64,000 nucleotides of DNA from Promethearchaeota archaeon (GTDB taxonomy: Archaea; Asgardarchaeota; Lokiarchaeia; Sigyniarchaeales; SOKP01), in the NCBI GenBank assembly GCA_019058445.1, contig JAHPZA010000006.1, positions 705,063 to 769,062 on the forward strand, in the 5' to 3' direction. The first letter of the stretch is position 1. Each line of letters starts with the position of its first letter. Below the pieces are notes generated by a model. It was not told the DNA's origin, ran no database searches, and saw only the letters and a list, made by a program, of their open reading frames with translations. The translations under genes and the position numbers were made by a program. Shown in pieces: positions 3,125 to 50,233 of this stretch.

Positions 3125-3889
3125 TTAACTTAAAAGAAAGTTAAAGATACTATCTTTAATTCTGAGAATATCCTTATTATAATTACTGGATTTTTTTACA
3201 ATTTTTATAAGATTTTCTTTAGCTACAATCATTTTAATTCTATTATAAAATTTTTTTTCATAAGGTGTCAAGTTAGCGACCCTTATATAATTCATTTTAC
3301 CAATCCAAATAGACTCCGTTACAAAAGGTCTTAATTTTTCCACTAAAATATAGGGATCTGAATCCAGAAAAGGTTCAATAGATATACTGGTCTTATACTC
3401 ATTGTCATATGCATATTTCAATGAATCTAGCCTCTCTTCAAGTGAAGGAGCTCCAGGTTCCCAAAAGTCAAGATTTTCTTTATTTATTGAGGTTATGGTA
3501 AAACGAAATTGGATCGAATCTTTGTTGTCCTTAAATCGCTCACAAATCTTCTTAACACAATATAGATTTGGTTTTGTAGTGATTAATACTTCATTTTCCG
3601 CTTTAAGTAATTTCTGCAATACAATTATGCTGTTTTCTAAGCTCTCAAGAGTAATATCATGGGATGTAGGGAACATAACTCGACCTGTTCTTTTGTTGTA
3701 ATTCTTAAAAATTGCTTTTTGATTCGGAACCATAATTTTCCAATTTTCTTTGGTTTTTCGACCAAATCGAATGGCCATTTTTTTAGCATAACAATAACGA
3801 CAATTATTACTACACCCATAATAACAATTAACGTTGCTATCTGCCCATTCTTTAGTACCTATAGTGATCTTTTGTATTTTACTTTTCAT
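3125..3889 (-). CDS. Small radical SAM enzyme, SplB/COG1533 ('DNA repair photolyase')-like
   Basis: N-terminal NCYYGCSNNCRYCYAKK contains the CxxxCxxC cluster motif in the context G-C-x-x-x-C-x-Y-C-Y-A typical of this small rSAM family. Length is 254 aa. Confidence 0.6.
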   Translation of the reverse strand: MKSKIQKITIGTKEWADSNVNCYYGCSNNCRYCYAKKMAIRFGRKTKENWKIMVPNQKAIFKNYNKRTGRVMFPTSHDITLESLENSIIVLQKLLKAENEVLITTKPNLYCVKKICERFKDNKDSIQFRFTITSINKENLDFWEPGAPSLEERLDSLKYAYDNEYKTSISIEPFLDSDPYILVEKLRPFVTESIWIGKMNYIRVANLTPYEKKFYNRIKMIVAKENLIKIVKKSSNYNKDILRIKDSIFNFLLS

Positions 3890-4449
3890 TATTTTGTACC
3901 TTTATTCAATCTATATAAAGAAAAACATTAAATAATTTTATGGACTCAACTTATTTTCTAAAAAAAAGAAATTACAAATTTAGTTAAAGTAAAGTGTTAT
4001 TGAGAAGATAAAATCATATCGTAAAAGTGAAGTATATTATCAAGAATTAAGAGGTTAGATGCAATTGATAAGATAAGGAGTAATCTTCTTGATTCCTATA
4101 ATGAGTAAGAGTTTAAGTAAGGTTTAATAACAAAAGCTTATAAAGGGTTATGGTCTTATTTTGTTTGATGGTGGAAGAATCGAACTATGGTGCTTCTTAC
4201 AAGCATTCATTCTTTTTTTTTTTTATAAAATGAGAGGTATTCTTGAAAAACTATAGAAATATTATTTTAATTTATTCATTTTTTCTATTTCATCAAATAT
4301 TTTAATGAAATTTTTTATATCTTTTAATTAAATTATATAAATTATATATATGGTTAATAAAATTCATCAAATTAATATATTCAGATGCATTATATTTAGA
4401 TAATGAAATATAACATAAATATTAAAAATACGCTATTAAAAATTATAAA

Positions 4450-7971: not shown

Positions 7972-8667
7972 GTGAAAATTACCGTGATCGAAGATTATTT
8001 TGATGATTTTCTCAATGGTCGTGGTTTTAATCAGAGATCAGATCGTGTAACCATCTCGAAAAAGGACTATCAAAAACTGATTGATATCACAGAACAATAT
8101 GAATTACTTGCGGCTGAACACAAGAAAATCAAATCTCAAAATGATGCCTTACTCAAAGAACTTGATGATTTAAAAGATGATGGCCGAAAATTCAAAGAAT
8201 TAGAAGAAGAGAAAGAAAAATATTTAAACTCGTTATTAAGAGCGAGGGCGGATCTTGAAAATTACAAGAAAGTATCAGACCGAGAAAATCAAAGATACAG
8301 AGATTATGTGATGAAAGATTTGCTACTCAAGTTAGTTAATCATTATGATGACTTGAATAGAGCATTAGACCTATTAGAAGTAAGTGAAAATGTTGATTCA
8401 ATCGTGAAAGGTTTTAAAATATTAGTAAAAAATTATGAAAAATTACTTTCCGATGAGGGGGTAAAACCTATGAACTGTGAGGGGGAAATTTTCGACCCTT
8501 ACAAACATGAAGCTATGATGGTTGAGGAATCTAGTGATGATAATCTCCCTGAAAATACAATTTTGGAAGAATTAGATAAAGGGTATTATTATAAAGATAA
8601 AGTGCTGAAACCAGCACGAGTAAAAATTTCAAAAAAATCGAATTTAAAAAACGAAAATAAAAATTAG
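7972..8667 (+). CDS. grpE: Nucleotide exchange factor GrpE
   Basis: Coiled-coil N-terminus, then LRARADLENYKKVSDRE and a C-terminal beta domain GEIFDPYKHEAMM. The GTG start is preceded by GAGGGAG. It is the first gene of the chaperone row. Confidence 0.9.
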   Translation: MKITVIEDYFDDFLNGRGFNQRSDRVTISKKDYQKLIDITEQYELLAAEHKKIKSQNDALLKELDDLKDDGRKFKELEEEKEKYLNSLLRARADLENYKKVSDRENQRYRDYVMKDLLLKLVNHYDDLNRALDLLEVSENVDSIVKGFKILVKNYEKLLSDEGVKPMNCEGEIFDPYKHEAMMVEESSDDNLPENTILEELDKGYYYKDKVLKPARVKISKKSNLKNENKN

Positions 8668-42724: not shown

Positions 42725-44188
42725 ATGACTGAAGATATATTATTTCAAAAATTAGTTGAAATTTTTAGCTCAAAATATGTATCAAGAGAACGAAATATTC
42801 TAAATAACTATTCCAAAGATTTAAGCTTTTATCCTGAAAAAGCTCCAAAATATGTTGCATGGCCTACTGATACAAAAAAGATTGAAGAGGTTTTAAAATT
42901 AGCTAACGAATTAAAATTTTCTGTTATTCCTATCAGTTCAAGCTCTGGTCCACGTCATCATGGAGATACTATTCCTCATAAGGATAATACTATTGTATTA
43001 GATCTTTCTAATATGAATAAAATTCTTAATATTGACAGAAAGAACAGAGTAGTTATGATTGAACCGGGAGTTACCTTCGGGAAGTTAATACCGGAACTCC
43101 AAAATAAAGGATTAAGATTACTATTACCCCTCCATCCACGGGATTCTAAATCTGTCTTAACCAGCGCATTAGAAAGAGAACCAATTACCATCCCCCGTTA
43201 TCATTGGGACAGCTCCGATCCCTTGTTATGTACTGAAGTTTTTTTTGGAACAGGAGATCTTTTTAGAACAGGTACAGCAGCAGGTCCAGGAACAATAAAA
43301 GAGCAACAAGCAACTGGTCAAGCCCAGGTAAATCCCATGGGTCCTACTCAATTCAGTCCTTTCAGAGTTATTCAAGGCGCTCAGGGCAGTTTAGGAGTTG
43401 TAACCTGGGCTACACTTAAATTAGAGTTAATCCCAACTATTCAAAAAGTGGTTCATATCCAATCAGATACTATTCCCGAATTATTAAATCTTCAGCATGA
43501 ATTAATAAAATACCGTTTATGCAACGAATTATTAATATTAAACAACTTAAATTTAGCTTGTTTAGTTAAAAAGAATGCACAAGAGATAACCGAGCTGAAA
43601 AACAAAATAAAGAGATGGAATTTACTTTATATAATTGCTGGAAGAGGAAAGTTAGCAGAAGATAAAATATCATATTTAGAAGGAGACATTAGGGATATTA
43701 TAGGAGACCTTGGGCTTAAAGGTTTAATCAGTGAAAACATCATTAATGATAATGATATTTTACAAGTTTTAAGTCAAGCAACACCTGATCCTTGGAGGTT
43801 AAAGTTAAAGGGGGGATATCAAGATATATTTTTCCTTACGAGTTTTGAAAAAATTACAGAATTTATTTCAATTGTAGAAAAAGAAGTTCCACAAGATTTA
43901 GGAATTTACATTCAACCGATTAACCAAGGAACTTCATATCACTGTGAATTTGATCTTTATTATGATCCTTCAAATGATGCAGAAAAGACGAATATTAAGG
44001 AGAAATTCTTAAAAATTAGTACTAACTTAATGGATTCTGGTGCCTTTTTTAATAGACCCTACGGAATTTTAACAAAAGAAGTATATAAAAGACATGATGA
44101 TTCAACTCAGACGGCTTTAAAAAAAGTAAAAAAGATATTTGACCCTAACAATGTGTTAAATCCAGGGGTACTATGTTTTGATGAATAA
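42725..44188 (+). CDS. FAD-linked oxidase (FAD_binding_4 / GlcD-like) family protein
   Basis: PKYVAWPTDTKKIEEVLKLANELKFSVIPISSSSGP...IVLDLSNMNKILNIDRKNRVVMIEPGVTFGKL, and C-terminal KKIFDPNNVLNPG. Confidence 0.7.
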   Translation: MTEDILFQKLVEIFSSKYVSRERNILNNYSKDLSFYPEKAPKYVAWPTDTKKIEEVLKLANELKFSVIPISSSSGPRHHGDTIPHKDNTIVLDLSNMNKILNIDRKNRVVMIEPGVTFGKLIPELQNKGLRLLLPLHPRDSKSVLTSALEREPITIPRYHWDSSDPLLCTEVFFGTGDLFRTGTAAGPGTIKEQQATGQAQVNPMGPTQFSPFRVIQGAQGSLGVVTWATLKLELIPTIQKVVHIQSDTIPELLNLQHELIKYRLCNELLILNNLNLACLVKKNAQEITELKNKIKRWNLLYIIAGRGKLAEDKISYLEGDIRDIIGDLGLKGLISENIINDNDILQVLSQATPDPWRLKLKGGYQDIFFLTSFEKITEFISIVEKEVPQDLGIYIQPINQGTSYHCEFDLYYDPSNDAEKTNIKEKFLKISTNLMDSGAFFNRPYGILTKEVYKRHDDSTQTALKKVKKIFDPNNVLNPGVLCFDE

Positions 44189-44279
44189 ATAACCATAAAT
44201 ATTATGACTAATCTTTTTCAAATTCAAGATTAGATTGATAAAATTACCTAATTATAGGTAATACGAAGGAGGATAGGAC

Positions 44280-45587
44280 ATGATGGATGATGAGGAATAC
44301 AAGCATCTGATAAGACGTTGTATCCGCTGCTCTATATGTAAATGGATTCCACAGCTTCAAATTAAAAGTAAAAAATATGCGACTATCTGTCCCGCTATAG
44401 ATATGTATAACTTCCATCCCTATAGTGGTGGTGGTAAAATAATCCTTGCGCTTGCTTTAGAAATGGAAAAAATTAAACCTTCTGAGGAACTACGCGATAT
44501 TGTTTATAAATGCACGGAATGTGGAGGCTGTGATGTCTCATGTAAATTTTTGAATAATTTGGAGCCCTTAGAAATTATAATAAAATTAAGGGAGAAATTA
44601 GTTGATTTAGGCTATGGCCCAATGCCTAAGCAACAACAATACATTGATTCTGTTAAAAAAAACAATAATCCATATAATGAACCCCATGAAAATAGATTGA
44701 ACTGGTTGCCAGAGGATATAAATATTGATCCTAATGCTCAAGTTTTATATTTTGTAGGATGCACTTCCTCCTATAGACGGAAAGAAATGGCAATTGCCGC
44801 CTGTAGAGTATTAAATGCTGCAGGAGTTCCATTTAATATCTTAGATAATGAGGAATATTGCTGTGGAAGCCCTGTTTTTCGGACTGGTGATATTAACACC
44901 TTTAAAGATTTTATGAATAAAAACGTAGATGCAATTGAAGCTAAAAATATTAAAAAAGTAGTTTTCAGTTGTGCAGGCTGCTACGATACATTTAAAGTTC
45001 ATTATCCGCTTTATCGTAATTATAATTTTGAAGTTAAGCATAGTGTTGAATTTTTTAACGAACTAATTGAAAATGGAAAATTATTATTGACGAAAAAAGT
45101 ACCCTTAACTGTTACCTATCACGATCCTTGTCATTTAGGGAGAAATGCTGAACCCTACAAGGAATGGAAAGGTAAAGTTGTGAATTTAATGCCTTTGATA
45201 TCTATTCACGTACCTCCTAAACCTAAACGATGTGGAACTGATGGGGTATATGAATCTCCCAGAGAGCTTCTGAAAAAGATTCCCGAATTGAAATTCATTG
45301 AGATGGAACGGATTAAAGAATATTCATACTGTTGTGGAGCGGGGGCTGGTGTAAAATCAGCATTTCCCGAATTTGCTCTCCATACAGCAAAAAATAGGAT
45401 ACAGGAAGCTGAAGATACTGGAGCACAAGTTATTACGTCTTCTTGTCCCTTCTGTTCGACTAATCTTCAAGATGCAATTCATGAAAGCGATTCTCTATTA
45501 AAATATTATGACATAAACGAATTATTAATGATGGCAATAGGGATCACTGATGAGAAATTAAAAGAATTTTTGGGGGAAGTTGCTTAA
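44280..45587 (+). CDS. HdrD/GlcF-like (Fe-S)-binding subunit with two ferredoxin-type Cys motifs and two CCG domains (paralog 1, intact)
   Basis: CIRCSICKWIP...ICP and CTECGGCDVSCK. The CCG domains are FVGCTSSYR...YCCGSPV and YHDPCHLGR...YCCGAGAG...CPFC. Confidence 0.7.
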   Translation: MMDDEEYKHLIRRCIRCSICKWIPQLQIKSKKYATICPAIDMYNFHPYSGGGKIILALALEMEKIKPSEELRDIVYKCTECGGCDVSCKFLNNLEPLEIIIKLREKLVDLGYGPMPKQQQYIDSVKKNNNPYNEPHENRLNWLPEDINIDPNAQVLYFVGCTSSYRRKEMAIAACRVLNAAGVPFNILDNEEYCCGSPVFRTGDINTFKDFMNKNVDAIEAKNIKKVVFSCAGCYDTFKVHYPLYRNYNFEVKHSVEFFNELIENGKLLLTKKVPLTVTYHDPCHLGRNAEPYKEWKGKVVNLMPLISIHVPPKPKRCGTDGVYESPRELLKKIPELKFIEMERIKEYSYCCGAGAGVKSAFPEFALHTAKNRIQEAEDTGAQVITSSCPFCSTNLQDAIHESDSLLKYYDINELLMMAIGITDEKLKEFLGEVA

Positions 45588-47159
45588 ATGGTCTTAGAAA
45601 ATGAAATTTTTAAAGATTTTGAAGATATTGTAGGTAAAAATAATATTAACGATGGAAAAGTAATAACTACGGCGTATGCCTATAATTGGTGTATGGAATT
45701 TTTCAATTATATGGAAGATAAGGAACCCAGTCCTTTTTCTTCTATTCCTAAAGCAGTAATTCTTCCTGCTTCTACTGAGGAAGTAGCTGAAATTATAAAA
45801 TTATGTAATAAATATGGGATTAAATTTAAGGCCCAAAGCACAGGATTAGGACCATGGAATCAGCCTTCTACAGACAATTGTATAATTGTGGATCTACGAA
45901 GAATGAATAAACTTGTAAAAATTGATGAAAAAAATTTATATGCCGTTATCGAGCCATACGTAAGTGGAGCACAGCTACAAGTTGAGGCAATGAAGTATGG
46001 GCTTAATTGTCATATGCCCGGAGCTGGTCCTCACGTATCTCCTCTGGCAAGTGCTACATCAATGGCGGGTCCAGGTTTTACCTCTCCTTCTACTGGTCAT
46101 AGCGCAAGAAATGTCCTAGGTGTTGAGTGGGTATTACCTACCGGAGATATTATGAGATTAGGTGCGATTGGTCTTAAAAAAAAACCTGATTGGTATAATG
46201 GTGATGGTCCAGGTCCTAGTTTAAGAGGGATAATGCGGGGTTGGGTTGGAGCAAAATCAGGAATCGGAGTATTTACTAAGGTCGCGGTAAAATTATTTCC
46301 TTATCCTTGCAGTACGGATTTTACTATTACTGGAAAATCTCCCAATTACGGATTTAAAATTCCGAAATATTTAAGACTATATGTTATGGATTGTAAGACC
46401 TACGAATTTTTGGAAGAGGTTATGCTTAAGGTTGATGAGGAAGAAATCTCTTTTATGTGCAGTCATTTATCTGGATCAGGTTTAGCGGCAATATTTTCCA
46501 ATTCATTGCAAGGTTTAATAGGGAAAGCAAAACTCGCTCAGTTGAAAGTTCCGATAGTTATACTAATTACCGCTCGAACAGACCGTGAATTTGATTACAA
46601 GCAAAAAGTTATGGATAATTTGATTCAAGAGTTAAATATTAAAGACATTATCGGTAAATCATATTCTCCTGAACCAGTGTTTTATGCTGAGGCTTTACGT
46701 TCGAATTTAGGGTTACACGGATTTATTACAACCGGAAGTTTTCAATCTTCTAAAGGAGGATCTGATACTGCTGCAGTATGTCTTTTAAGTACAAAAATGA
46801 ACATCCCGTTGAAGATGGAATATATTAAATCGGGGGCAATTGGGAACGATTCAGGAAAAGGTGTTTGGATGACCTCCTATGAATCCGGCCACTACTACCA
46901 TATGGAATCACCGACTATGTTTGATCAAACAGATGACCATAGCGTTAAGGGAATGGCGGAGTACATGGAGGCCAGCAATCAATTAGATTTACTAAAACAT
47001 CTCGGTGCTCCGTTTTTTGTAGAAGGGACCCAGATGCATGAGCTATTTGGGCCACATATGTCTAATTACCATATTTGGCTAAGAAAAATTAAACAGGCAT
47101 TTGATCCCAATAATATAGCAGATAGTGGATTTTATATATCACCACACAGTAAAGAATAG
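45588..47159 (+). CDS. FAD-linked oxidase-like subunit (paralog 1), translationally coupled to the Fe-S subunit
   Basis: The stop and start are adjacent (TAAATG at 45585-45590). Contains PKAVILPASTEEVAEIIKLCNKYGIKFKAQSTGLGP...IIVDLRRMNKLVKIDEKNLYAVIEPYVSGAQL (FAD_binding_4-like) and C-terminal IKQAFDPNNIADSG. Confidence 0.65.
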   Translation: MVLENEIFKDFEDIVGKNNINDGKVITTAYAYNWCMEFFNYMEDKEPSPFSSIPKAVILPASTEEVAEIIKLCNKYGIKFKAQSTGLGPWNQPSTDNCIIVDLRRMNKLVKIDEKNLYAVIEPYVSGAQLQVEAMKYGLNCHMPGAGPHVSPLASATSMAGPGFTSPSTGHSARNVLGVEWVLPTGDIMRLGAIGLKKKPDWYNGDGPGPSLRGIMRGWVGAKSGIGVFTKVAVKLFPYPCSTDFTITGKSPNYGFKIPKYLRLYVMDCKTYEFLEEVMLKVDEEEISFMCSHLSGSGLAAIFSNSLQGLIGKAKLAQLKVPIVILITARTDREFDYKQKVMDNLIQELNIKDIIGKSYSPEPVFYAEALRSNLGLHGFITTGSFQSSKGGSDTAAVCLLSTKMNIPLKMEYIKSGAIGNDSGKGVWMTSYESGHYYHMESPTMFDQTDDHSVKGMAEYMEASNQLDLLKHLGAPFFVEGTQMHELFGPHMSNYHIWLRKIKQAFDPNNIADSGFYISPHSKE

Positions 47160-47325
47160 AGGAATGAAGTTGACTAATAAGTATATATTGTGTACGTATG
47201 CAATAATAAGCTTTTTAACATTTAAGTTATTCCCAGATAAGACTCAGATTTTTAAATTTATAAATTAATACTTATATAATCTCTATAATCAGAATTAAAT
47301 AACTTTAAAATCAAGATGTAAGTCA

Positions 47326-48664
47326 ATGATTGATGAAAAAGAATATCAGAAAATGATTAAGCGGTGTCTGCGCTGCTCGATAAATGAATAGAAATTGATT
47401 CTTTCATTCGGAATGCAAGTGGATACCGCAAGTTCAGATTAAGAGCCAAAAGTACGCGACTGCCTGCCCGGCAATGGATATGTATAATTTCCACCCGTAT
47501 AGTGGTGGGGGTAAAATAATCTTGGCTTTATTACTTGAAATGGGCAGAATCAATCCTTCAGATGAGTTGCGGGATATCGTTTATAAATGTACTGAATGCG
47601 GGGCATGTGCTATTTCCTGTAAATTTTTAAACACTTTAGAACCTTTAGAAATAATTATGAAACTACGGGAGAAATTGGTTGATGCAGGATGTGGTCCAAT
47701 GCCTAAGCAACAAGAATACATTGATTCAGTCAAAAATAAGAATAATCCTTATAATGAACCTCATGAAAAGCGATTAGATTGGTTACCAGAAGGGATTAAA
47801 CTCGATCCAAATGCGAAAGTCTTGTATTATGTTGGCTGTACCTCATCATATAGACGGGAAGAGATGGCAATCGCTTCAGTCCGCATAATGAATGAGGCCC
47901 AAGTTCCCTTTACTATTTTAGGTGATGATGAATTTTGCTGTGGTAGTCCTGTTTTAAGAACAGGTGATACCAAAACATTTCAAGAATTTCTTAATAAAAA
48001 CCTTGATATGATTGAGTCGAAAGGAATTGAAACCGTTGTATTTAGCTGTGCGGGGTGTTATGATACCTTTAAAGTCGATTATCCCCTATATCGAAAATAT
48101 AATTTCCGTGTACTTCATGTCGTTGAGTTTTTTGATGAGCTACTTGAATCTGGACAATTAAAGCTGATAAATGAAGTGCCTTTAACAGTAACATATCACG
48201 ATCCCTGTCATTTAGGGAGAAATGCTGAACCTTATGAAGAATGGGAAGGGGATGTGGTCGATTTAATGCCATTAGTTTCTATAAATATGCCGCCAAAACC
48301 CAAAAAAACAGGTGCTAAGGGTATCTATGACGCTCCAAGAGAGATTCTAAAAAAGATTCCGGGACTAAAACTTATTGAAATGGAACGAATAAGAGAATAT
48401 TCTTACTGTTGTGGTGCTGGAGCAGGGGTAAAATCAGCATTTCCCGAATTTGCACTCAATACAGCTAAAACTAGAGTACAAGAAGCAGAAGATACTGGAG
48501 CTAAGATATTGACATCAGCATGTCCATTTTGTTCTACAAATCTTCAAGACGCAATAAAAGATAGAGGCTCTAAGTTAAAATTCTATGATATAAATGAGCT
48601 ATTATTAATGGCTTTAGGTTTAGAAACGAAAAGCTTAAAAAAAAAAATGGCGGAGGTTGCCTAA
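47326..48664 (+). CDS. HdrD/GlcF-like (Fe-S)-binding subunit, paralog 2, split by a 31-nt insert; proposed exons 47326..47382 and 47414..48664
   Basis: Exon 1 encodes MIDEKEYQKMIKRCLRCSI. Exon 2 encodes CKWIPQVQIKSQKYATACPAMDMYNFHP... Joined, they give 435 aa, colinear with and equal in length to paralog 1. Without excision the frame hits TAG at 47389-47391, and the ORF track only reports 47474..48664. Confidence 0.7.
47383..47413 (+). other. Putative bulge-helix-bulge (hBHBh') intron, 31 nt, within a protein-coding gene
   Basis: - Helix h: U47374-G-C47376 pairs with G47415-C-A47417.
- Helix H: U47377-C-G-A47380 pairs with U47408-C-G-G47411 (4 bp, one G.U).
- The 3-nt bulges are 47381-47383 (UAA) and 47412-47414 (AAU).
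- Helix h': 47384-47388 pairs with 47403-47407, then 47390-47393 pairs with 47399-47402.
- The loop is AUUGA.
- Cleavage after bulge nt 2 gives the junction 47382^47414. Confidence 0.65.
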
Positions 48665-50233
48665 ATGACATTAGATAAAGAGATTTTAACCGAGTTCGTT
48701 GAAATAGTTGGAAAAGAAAATATTGACGATGGAGAAGTTATGACAAATGCTTATGCTTATAATTGGTGCATGGATTTATTCAATCACATGGAAAGTAAAC
48801 CCGCAATCCCTTTTTCACCTATTCCTAAAGCGGTTGTTTTACCTTCTTCTACAGAGGAGGTAGCACAAATTGTTAAAATATGCAATAAATATGGCATTAA
48901 ATTCAAAGCACAATCAACTGGTCTCGGACCATGGAATCAACCTTCTACAGAGAATTCGATCATTATTGATTTGCGAAGGATGAATAAAATTGTAAAAATC
49001 GATGAGAAAAATCTGTATGCCGTCGTGGAACCATATGTAAGTGGGGCGCAACTTCAAGCAGAAATTATGAAATATGGTCTTAATTGCCATATGCCAGGTG
49101 CGGGACCTCAAGTTTCCCCTTTAGCGAGTGCAACTAGCATGAATGGTCCTGGATTTACCTCTCCTTCTACAGGGCATAGCGCTCGTAATGTATTAGGGGT
49201 TGAATGGGTCTTGCCTGATGGAGAAATCATGAGGTTAGGTTCACGTGGGCTTAAAAATAACCGTAATTGGTATAATGGTGATGGCCCGGGACCTAGTCTT
49301 AGAGGTATAATGAGAGGATGGGCTGGAGCAAAATCGGGCATCGGTGTTTTCACTAGAGTTGCAGTTAAACTATTTCCATATCCTTGTAGCACTAAATTTA
49401 AGTTAAAAGGGTGTTCTCCAAATTATGATTTTGATATTCCTGATTTTATGAGAGTATATGTGATAGACTGCGGGACATTTAAGTATTGTGAAAAAGCAAT
49501 GTTGCGGGTAGAAGAAGAGGAAATTTCATTTATGTGCAGTCATTTATCTGGATTTGCCGTAATGGCAATCTTTGCAACCAGTATTGAGGATTTAATGGAT
49601 AAAATGGCTATAGGGAGTATGAAAGTTCCCTTAGTCGTTATAATAGCTGCTCGAACAACTAGGGAATTTGAATACAAACAAAAAGTTATGAGTATGATTT
49701 TAGATGAGATGCAATTAACTAACATTATTGGAAGCCTATACACACCTAATCCAATTTTTTACGCAGAAGCACTAAGATCAAACTTAGGTCTTCACGGCTT
49801 CATTGCTACCGGAGGATTTCAAAGCACTAAAGGTGTTTGTGATACTGCTGCAATATGCCTCCGAAGTGAACAAAAGAATATTCCATTGAAAAAGAAATAT
49901 ATCAAAACAGGTGCGATCGCAAACGACTTCGGTGAGGGCCATTGGATGACATCTTATGAATCAGGACATTACTTTCACGTGGAGGCTCCCACGATGTTCG
50001 ACCAAACGGAGCAAAGTAGTGTGGAAGGCATGGCGGACTATATGGAAGCCAGCAATCAGATGGATTTGCTTAAGCATCTTGGAGCACCGTTTTTCGTGGA
50101 AGGTGATAAGATGCATGAAACTTTTGGCCCTCATATGATGAATTACCATAAATGGTTGAGAAAAATTAAACAAGCGTTCGATCCTAATGATATAGCAGAT
50201 TCAGGGTTTTATATCTCAAGAAAAGAAAAATAA
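48665..50233 (+). CDS. FAD-linked oxidase-like subunit (paralog 2), translationally coupled to Fe-S paralog 2
   Basis: TAAATG junction at 48662-48667. It is colinear with 45588..47159 along the full length (522 vs 523 aa), with most residues identical by eye. Confidence 0.65.
   Translation: MTLDKEILTEFVEIVGKENIDDGEVMTNAYAYNWCMDLFNHMESKPAIPFSPIPKAVVLPSSTEEVAQIVKICNKYGIKFKAQSTGLGPWNQPSTENSIIIDLRRMNKIVKIDEKNLYAVVEPYVSGAQLQAEIMKYGLNCHMPGAGPQVSPLASATSMNGPGFTSPSTGHSARNVLGVEWVLPDGEIMRLGSRGLKNNRNWYNGDGPGPSLRGIMRGWAGAKSGIGVFTRVAVKLFPYPCSTKFKLKGCSPNYDFDIPDFMRVYVIDCGTFKYCEKAMLRVEEEEISFMCSHLSGFAVMAIFATSIEDLMDKMAIGSMKVPLVVIIAARTTREFEYKQKVMSMILDEMQLTNIIGSLYTPNPIFYAEALRSNLGLHGFIATGGFQSTKGVCDTAAICLRSEQKNIPLKKKYIKTGAIANDFGEGHWMTSYESGHYFHVEAPTMFDQTEQSSVEGMADYMEASNQMDLLKHLGAPFFVEGDKMHETFGPHMMNYHKWLRKIKQAFDPNDIADSGFYISRKEK

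Follow-up and report, generated by a model that had tools for sequence, protein, structure and literature searches.

The closest described counterpart of the element treated here is the intron in the cbf5 pre-mRNA of Crenarchaeota (Watanabe et al. 2002; Yokobori et al. 2009, PMC2738675), a short intron of the bulge-helix-bulge (BHB) type that lies inside a coding region and disrupts an essential motif, so that splicing is required; its phylogenetic distribution is patchy, with secondary losses inferred in cbf5. The same features (a short BHB-type insert in a coding region, a disrupted essential motif, a patchy distribution) are found in a 64-kb stretch of DNA from a Promethearchaeota archaeon (64,000 nt of contig JAHPZA010000006.1; hereafter the window). 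Its gene FeS2, the second of two paralogs for an Fe-S subunit, is interrupted by 31 nt (47383-47413, plus strand, as are all window features below) that very probably constitute a spliced archaeal BHB intron within the coding region of a GlcF/HdrD-like protein. The cbf5 gene encodes a pseudouridine synthase of Desulfurococcales and Sulfolobales, whereas FeS2 encodes the Fe-S subunit of a GlcD/F-like oxidoreductase of Lokiarchaeia (Asgard archaea), and the two have no sequence relationship. The hosts of the cbf5 intron possess a heteromeric (alpha-beta)2 tRNA-splicing endonuclease (EndA), as Asgard archaea are reported to do. Membership in the cbf5 intron family itself was rejected, the FeS2 host gene carrying Fer4_8 and two CCG domains and all related loci being from Promethearchaeota or other Asgard metagenome-assembled genomes (MAGs), although the two introns would work alike. 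Splicing of cbf5 has been demonstrated experimentally, whereas that of FeS2 is predicted.

The introns of archaeal tRNAs and rRNAs (PMC6379350, PMC4090602) share with FeS2 an identical hBHBh′ geometry, with a 4-bp central helix made of 5′-exon and intron bases, two bulges of 3 nt and cleavage behind the second nucleotide of each; the size of the FeS2 intron lies within the tRNA intron range, and relaxed variants occur alike in hosts with a broad-specificity EndA. FeS2 differs from them in that the substrate is an mRNA, the exon halves of its helices are bound by both codons and pairing, and no tRNA body aids recognition. The BHB intron in the 5′ untranslated region (UTR) of Haloferax volcanii HVO_1309 (PMC7714728) is likewise an mRNA substrate of EndA outside tRNA and rRNA; unlike that of FeS2, it is situated in an untranslated leader, leaves the reading frame uninterrupted and has been shown experimentally. 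In mode, HAC1 and XBP1 of eukaryotes also resemble what is predicted for FeS2: a protein endonuclease cuts a very short intron out of the coding region, a ligase of the tRNA type takes part, and the frame is changed. The XBP1 intron is 26 nt long, and both mRNAs are processed by IRE1 plus a tRNA ligase or RtcB. In HAC1 and XBP1, however, twin stem-loops are cut by IRE1 under stress regulation, and there is no RNA-level homology to FeS2.

The preliminary description of this DNA held that BHB introns in mRNAs are known for very few archaeal genes, and the literature agrees, giving cbf5 (coding region) and HVO_1309 (5′ UTR). In a 2020 experimental paper and a 2025 reference list, cbf5 alone is cited for coding regions, and the Haloferax HVO_1309 5′ UTR is the sole other mRNA case. 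Full-text literature searches retrieved no description of BHB introns in Asgard protein-coding genes. As far as that literature goes, the FeS2 intron appears to be a cbf5-type BHB pre-mRNA intron first found in Asgard archaea.

The insert in FeS2 and its predicted fold

The reading frame of FeS2 starts at ATG 47326 and runs through exon 1 (47326-47382, MIDEKEYQKMIKRCLRCSI), which encodes the first two Cys of the motif CxxCxxCxxxCP, and through AAT GAA into the stop codon TAG at 47389-47391; the gene is thus broken at the N-E-TAG that the preliminary description had pointed out. The frame of exon 2 (47414-48664, CKWIPQVQIKSQKY... to the stop codon), which encodes CKWIPQVQIKSQKYATACPAMDMYNF..., opens at 47399, after a TGA at 47396-47398, and contains no ATG, GTG or TTG start codon before 47474. 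Gene callers predict just 47474-48664 (396 aa), and the public annotation for FeS2 from NCBI and Logan holds only this truncated open reading frame (ORF). In a MAFFT alignment with the insert-free paralog 1 (FeS1, 44280-45587, 435 aa), our junction reference, there is a single gap of exactly 31 nt at 47383-47413 (AATGAATAGAAATTGATTCTTTCATTCGGAA), which can equally be placed at 47382-47412 because an A stands at both ends. Deletion of 47383-47413 restores the frame and the cluster motif across the junction CSI|CKW and gives a 435-aa product, equal in length to paralog 1; the size of the insert and the effect of its removal are as had been claimed. The independent Logan assembly of run SRR14802574 (L001; L numbers denote the loci compared) is identical to the window across 9 kb, insert included, and an assembly artefact is therefore ruled out.

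The minimum free energy (MFE) structure of 47365-47426 computed with ViennaRNA is a strict hBHBh′, matching every helix and bulge proposed in the preliminary description. The exon bases UGC (47374-47376) and UCGA (47377-47380), which belong to the codons for Cys-Ser-Ile, form the 5′ strands of the 3-bp helix h and of the central helix H; the corresponding 3′ strands are GCA (47415-47417) and UCGG (47408-47411). Helix H comprises 4 bp and lies between two 3-nt bulges on opposite strands, UAA (47381-47383) and AAU (47412-47414). The intron-internal helix h′ (47384-47407) consists of 5 bp (47384-47388 with 47403-47407) and 4 bp (47390-47393 with 47399-47402), with a bulged U at 47389 and a 5-nt loop at 47394-47398. 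Outside, h is extended across a small internal loop by a 7-bp exon-exon helix (UGUCUGC at 47365-47371 with GUGGAUA at 47419-47425), which also forms part of the predicted MFE structure in eight of nine homologues.

The canonical archaeal tRNA intron sits between nucleotides 37 and 38, and its central helix is built from nucleotides 32-35, among them anticodon bases one and two (PMC4090602; PMC6379350). The cut rule applied in our analysis, cleavage after the second nucleotide of each 3-nt bulge, derives from this 37/38 geometry (PMC4090602). In FeS2 it predicts cuts between 47382 and 47383 and between 47413 and 47414, and the resulting junction 47382^47414 is the sole one that restores both the frame and the paralog sequence, as had been anticipated; it gives CSI|CKW, a complete Fer4_8 domain and the 435-aa ORF. 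Applied to five other sites in relatives, this rule likewise brings back conserved motifs. ARAGORN found no tRNA genes in the window or in 57 loci, which leaves no intron-containing tRNA as a control for the rule.

In the mechanism that we propose, exon bases 47374-47380 of the pre-mRNA would pair with 47408-47417 while the intron forms its own hairpin, and this pairing would present the two 3-nt bulges with the 4-bp helix between them. EndA, reported as an (alpha-beta)2 enzyme in Asgard archaea, there with a broad specificity and an L1 loop (PMC5829648), would cut after the second nucleotide of each bulge, and RtcB would join 47382 to 47414. The spliced mRNA would yield the 435-aa protein with its N-terminal CxxCxxCxxxCP dicluster domain intact; the unspliced mRNA would yield a 21-aa peptide or, at best, the 396-aa protein lacking half of the dicluster domain. 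All in silico tests agree in supporting the view that the intron would have to be spliced out for a full-length protein to be made.

Conservation of the insert and weighing of alternatives

A scan of the GTDB species genomes returned 64 loci, all in Asgard MAGs and mostly in Promethearchaeota (Lokiarchaeia), the best matches having 89-90% amino-acid identity. At the same codon boundary, CSI|CKW, an insert interrupts 25 further homologous genes from Lokiarchaeial MAGs and metagenomes: nine in 8 GTDB MAGs (two of them in L002), 15 on metagenome contigs, which were found by a DNA pattern scan, and L058, where the insert is of a 34-nt version. Protein-level inspection of the 64 loci located inserts at this boundary in L002 (both paralogs), L003, L026, L027, L028, L033 and L049. 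The inserts are 29, 31 or 34 nt long. Wherever the gene is complete (21 of 24 loci, three contigs ending early), an unbroken ORF of about 435 aa is obtained once the insert is taken out. By our own scan, a strict hBHBh′ is situated at the product-preserving junction in 20 of 24 sequences; in the four relaxed cases, either H has one mismatch (L026) or h′ contains a bulge of 1 nt (L066, L070 and L075).

Between intron types the sequence of h′ changes and its pairing is kept: AUGAA/UUCAU in type A (the window), AUGAG/CUCAU in type B, GAUAA/UUAUC in type C, AG-A-AUUUAGGG/CCCUAAAU-CU in type D, and GGUGAAUA/UAUUCACC in L058. Each of the first three h′ pairs occurs as two to five canonical pair types among 11 representative sequences, an A-U pair is replaced by G-C within type C2 (L066 versus L070), and a G·U in helix H becomes A-U. 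In types C, D and F the entire BHB is displaced by 1 nt (H = CUCG/CGAG, bulges AUA and AAA), and the product still reads Cys-Ser-Ile-Cys. Synonymous sites of the type-A orthologues differ by about 30-50%; the six distinct introns of this type, by comparison, change at a single paired position (A-U to G·U in h′) and otherwise vary only in the apical loop and in the distal stem next to it. The BHB structure is kept in evolution by compensatory change. This answers the question about orthologues raised in the preliminary description, both as to the presence of the insert at the same boundary and as to its pairing.

The exon bases are constrained as well. The codons TGC TCG ATA are present in all 10 insert-bearing genes that were found without the DNA pattern versus one of 58 insert-free homologues, which have TGT or TGC, mostly TCT, and ATA, ATT, ATC or GTA at these positions; the exon bases that form H and h are frozen only in insert-bearing genes. 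Over the spliced coding sequence of type-A orthologues, the ratio of nonsynonymous to synonymous change (dN/dS) is 0.056-0.11 at proportions of synonymous differences (pS) of 0.28-0.53, and it amounts to about 0.06-0.1 on both sides of the insert. In the first 39 codons, whose translation as a single frame would require splicing, it is 0.03-0.2. Among distinct sequences, 33 synonymous and 10 nonsynonymous variants occur in the 20 codons that lead from the insert to Met 47474, the earliest possible restart, which points to purifying selection on these codons. In the spliced protein the Fer4_8 domain covers residues 11-89 and reaches 34.9 bits, above the cut-off of 27. For the truncated ORF the score is 24 bits, and of the four Cys in the first cluster its 396-aa protein is without three (CxxCxxC).

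Several points weigh against a spliced intron. Helix h is short, with 3 bp in the window and just two G·U pairs, a relaxed form, in types C and D. The folding z-score of -1.8 is modest and unremarkable. Strict hBHBh′ motifs number 357 and 388 per strand in the window versus 236-293 in shuffled sequence, an excess of about 1.4-fold, and the strict motif alone proves nothing because it is common by chance in such AT-rich DNA (the G+C content of the window is 31%). None of nine predicted spliced proteins was found in a collection of 15 billion proteins that includes Logan assemblies of public runs, and the truncated 396-aa ORF of FeS2 is present there, from NCBI and Logan. Structure, conservation with covariation, exon-base constraint and selection on splicing-dependent codons are observations of this analysis, while the action of EndA and RtcB on the FeS2 pre-mRNA in vivo is what we infer from them. 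Generic scans are uninformative in the AT-rich DNA of the window, be they for strict BHB motifs or for ORF-joining ones; the latter gave no convincing second split gene in the window with a 60-codon filter that misses the known FeS2 case. A more specific chance test kept the real exons, shuffled the 31-mer and required a strict BHB at the product-preserving junction: 0.13% of the shuffled 31-mers passed with an h′ of at least 3 bp, and 0.03% with at least 5 bp, as observed. The signal that stands above chance is the coincidence of motif and junction, and its recurrence with different insert sequences in relatives.

Among the other explanations, a decaying pseudogene, broken by a random 31-nt insertion or duplication, would account for the broken ORF and for pipelines that call only a truncated product. 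It is scarcely credible for a gene with low dN/dS on both sides of an insert whose paired bases are conserved or covarying, and which is kept at the same site in 25 other genes despite 30-50% synonymous divergence, no second lesion having been found in any of these genes. The loss of pairing without compensation that the preliminary description had named as the mark of such decay is contradicted by the comparative data. Somewhat less improbable, yet still very unlikely, is that no splicing takes place and that the functional product is the 396-aa protein from Met 47474, exon 1 giving rise to a 21-aa peptide or to nothing. Such a product matches the gene-caller prediction and retains the two CCG domains and the second Cys cluster, but in the joined frame purifying selection acts on exon 1 and on the 20 codons that precede Met 47474, the truncated protein is deprived of most of its first cluster and falls under the Fer4_8 cut-off, and the conserved BHB and frozen exon codons would be left unexplained.

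The insert might also be skipped in translation, by programmed frameshifting or ribosomal bypassing, with the RNA left intact. Its length of 3n+1 in most copies and the stable hairpin within the gap fit this idea, and T4 gene 60 reportedly is bypassed with a similar stable hairpin in its gap. Frameshifting, however, is geometrically impossible because the exon-1 and exon-2 frames do not overlap: the one ends at 47391, the other opens at 47399, and no single +1 or -1 shift connects them. Bypassing is opposed by the lack of matched take-off and landing codons and of a conserved slippery site across intron types, by the stop codons in the 30-nt in-frame inserts of other genes (see below), and by the selection on a precise BHB geometry, which it would not explain; we give skipping as little credence as the pseudogene. 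A small chance, slightly above that of a functional truncated protein, is left for EndA cleavage serving chiefly as a regulatory or degradative switch on the level of full-length enzyme, in the manner of IRE1-dependent HAC1/XBP1, in place of constitutive intron removal. Splicing efficiency would gate expression because the intron, which interrupts the ORF after 57 nt, shifts the frame and introduces a stop two codons downstream; for the cbf5 intron, a part in negative regulation has been suggested (PMC2738675). On the other side, insert-free paralogs and orthologues work without any intron. A self-splicing group I or II intron was excluded by the 31-nt size of the insert and by the absence of Rfam matches in the window at gathering thresholds.

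Gene neighbourhood, gain and loss of the intron

The spliced FeS2 protein contains a Fer4_8 dicluster domain and two CCG domains (Pfam), because of which it is assigned as GlcF/HdrD/TfrB-like, every NCBIfam match being under its cut-off. FeS2 belongs to a cluster of five genes (42725-50233) in the order FAD487, FeS1, FAD523, FeS2 and FAD522, in which the FAD genes encode GlcD-like oxidase subunits and the FeS genes GlcF/HdrD-like Fe-S subunits. In most genomes the operon has three genes, FAD487-FeS-FAD522; the five-gene arrangement of the window and a few relatives represents a tandem duplication of FeS-FAD. The 166-nt spacer 5′ of exon 1 includes an AT-rich block (47227-47271, TTATTCCCAGATAAGACTCAGATTTTTAAATTTATAAATTAATAC) that is near-invariant in the six type-A loci, independently of the sequence farther upstream, and that probably is FeS2's own promoter.

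In a neighbour-joining tree, insert-bearing and insert-free genes are interleaved. The insert-free paralog 1 of the window is sister to a gene of L002 (L002a, 963-2249) that has a 29-nt insert at the same site and a different upstream region, with a 218-aa membrane protein in place of FAD487. Both paralog lineages therefore can hold the intron, and its distribution is patchy. The earlier statement that the intron is present in one of two paralogs consequently is true within the window and does not hold across the lineage.

All type-A loci have the same upstream context, which is the 3′ end of FAD523 or, in L003 and L074, just a remnant of it; a mobile cassette was ruled out on this ground for the type-A intron of the window, and the loci are taken to be related vertically because they share this context. 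The remnant (...FDPNNIADSGFYISP...) is seen between the FAD487 stop codon and FeS2 in L003 (3740-3830) and at the equivalent place in L074. Because of it, the single-copy operons of these two loci are considered to have arisen from the duplicated arrangement by deletion of FeS1 and most of FAD523. In L049, L066, L068 and L075 the insert is found in the ancestral context, directly 3′ of FAD487. FeS genes with a 29-nt type B insert are also situated outside the usual operon (L072, L076 and L080); that of L076 is followed by genes that by appearance are MBL-fold, SDR and acyl-CoA-synthetase-like, with no FAD subunit.

Mosaic alleles, endonuclease-like units and other split genes

In three pairs of FeS genes (L078/L010, L026/L009 and L033/L064) the gene bodies are 92-100% identical at the nucleotide level in nearly all 100-nt windows (lowest window 83%); the similarity breaks off within about 15 nt downstream of the insert site, and throughout the region upstream the sequences are unrelated. 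When the dehydrogenase pair L089/L093 (see below) is counted in, the gene bodies are about 90-100% identical, and upstream of the insert site identity either falls to about 40-80% or is lost. The insert-bearing members of these mosaic pairs have a common 5′ cassette of upstream region, exon 1 and insert, with 85-100% identity among L026, L027, L028 and L078 and 55-90% in L033. Immediately upstream of the FeS gene, a divergent two-gene unit abuts the cassette in L026 (79-3653, minus strand), L028 (3-3484) and L078 (2455-3470). Its first gene encodes a 208-aa protein with no Pfam match, also found on the part of the L070 contig examined (61-459), and its second a 984-aa protein with several helix-turn-helix motifs and a GIY-YIG domain (PF01541, E = 3.8e-6, 27.5 bits, cut-off 22.6). 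Homologues of the 984-aa protein have the N-terminal third in common. Precomputed Pfam data assign HNH or LAGLIDADG modules to several of them, and in the six contexts inspected a partner ORF of 138-222 aa comes first. For the units of L083 and L084 no nuclease domain is on record. A putative homing-endonuclease gene neighbours the intron gene in the relatives L026, L028, L078 and L089 and not in the window, where tblastn found no copies of the 984-aa and 208-aa proteins of L026. In L058 (3787-4400) an old, insert-free exon 1 has decayed and contains internal stops (3787-3856); behind it lie the C-terminal remains of a 984-aa-like nuclease gene and then a new exon 1 (4279-4335), the 34-nt BHB insert and the gene body, so that about 75 nt of the gene's 5′ end are duplicated flanking the inserted DNA.

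Of five further genomic contexts inspected, three have an insert of 29-30 nt that splits the gene adjacent to such a unit; no split neighbour gene was seen in the contexts L081/L087 and L086. In L084 (2880-4445; L085 has the identical segment) a homologue of the two-gene unit is closely followed downstream by an AMP/thymidine-phosphorylase-like gene, which is divided into ORFs of 182 and 296 aa at the boundary DKHST|GGVPGNK. The insert there (3404-3433, 30 nt, in frame) contains TAG and forms a relaxed HBh′ (H = CAGC/GCUG) without outer helix, and its removal gives a continuous Glycos_transf_3 domain. The AAA+ (AAA_5) ATPase gene of L083 (8187-9938), which has a 1008-aa homologue of the 984-aa protein 160 nt upstream, falls into ORFs of 105 and 452 aa at IVRGH|PQLTEEK. 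Its 30-nt insert (8499-8528) forms a BHB with a 5-bp h′, H = GGTC/GGCT and the bulges ATA and AAC, and removal of this insert restores a 573-aa ORF. A scyllo-inosose-3-dehydrogenase-like Zn-dependent alcohol dehydrogenase gene in L089 (7118-8400) has two mini-inserts, one of 29 nt at CGI|CGSDVH and one of 30 nt at VGAQ|GHSGHG. Without both it encodes a 392-aa protein that aligns colinearly with the insert-free protein P0038 at 93% identity. The dehydrogenase genes of L090 (3073-4281) and L091 have the second insert only, and neither the unit nor the first insert. Compared with L093, which is free of inserts and unit, L089 repeats the mosaic of the FeS genes: downstream of site 1 it is mostly 90-98% identical (single 60-nt windows range over 83-98%, site 2 left aside), and in the 190 coding nt upstream of site 1 it is 67-83% identical. 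In phosphorylase, ATPase and dehydrogenase alike, a cut after the second bulge nucleotide brings a conserved motif back and makes the Pfam domain continuous. Annotation renders the split genes of related loci as two fragments, some of them with no Pfam match. Several database entries for the dehydrogenase, of 338-344 aa, resemble truncated calls; one of them, P0060, is a 339-aa alcohol dehydrogenase ending in VGAQA and probably comes from the window's own genome. Its truncation probably reflects a second BHB mini-intron in that genome, at the VGAQ|GHSGHG site.

This pattern resembles collaborative homing by an intron and a free-standing endonuclease (PMC2790892, PMC6083498). As with the cyanophage psbA intron and F-CphI (PMC6083498) or the T4 nrdB intron and mobE (PMC2790892), the putative nuclease gene of the relatives stands beside and not inside the intron gene, and exchange tracts extend from the nuclease gene to the intron site. 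In contrast to the psbA and nrdB introns, which are self-splicing group I introns of phages, those of the relatives are 29-34-nt BHB introns of archaeal chromosomes and are predicted to be spliced by the host; the window intron, with no nuclease neighbour, is unlike these systems. It is therefore a tentative suggestion, which we consider possible and by no means the likelier case, that BHB mini-introns of 29-34 nt are recurrent and mobile in Lokiarchaeial coding genes, spreading with free-standing homing-endonuclease units, and that the window intron is a vertically inherited orphan. Such a unit would comprise the partner ORF of 138-222 aa followed by a protein of 700-1000 aa, with the shared N-terminal module and GIY-YIG, HNH or LAGLIDADG where on record. 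The putative nuclease would cut insert-free alleles at the future intron site, and repair would copy the unit and the 5′ part of the neighbour gene as far as that site. The mini-intron would disrupt the target, and host EndA and RtcB would keep the gene functional. Alternatively, the mosaics could stem from ordinary recombination between strains or paralogs.

For more than 20 years, cbf5 of Crenarchaeota has been the sole documented BHB intron inside an archaeal coding region. A spliced FeS2 would add a second gene family, represented by 26 sequences with covariation, in the Asgard archaea, the closest prokaryotic relatives of eukaryotes. Standard pipelines silently truncate genes with such introns, as is evident from the 396 instead of 435 aa of FeS2 and from the AMP phosphorylase, AAA+ ATPase and alcohol dehydrogenase of relatives that are called as two fragments. 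Pairs with and without the insert whose gene bodies are 92-100% identical offer unusually clean material on the gain and loss of BHB introns, and the endonuclease-linked pattern across several genes would, if true, constitute a mechanism open to testing. In the Lokiarchaeial lineage, the tRNA-splicing machinery probably serves mRNAs as well.

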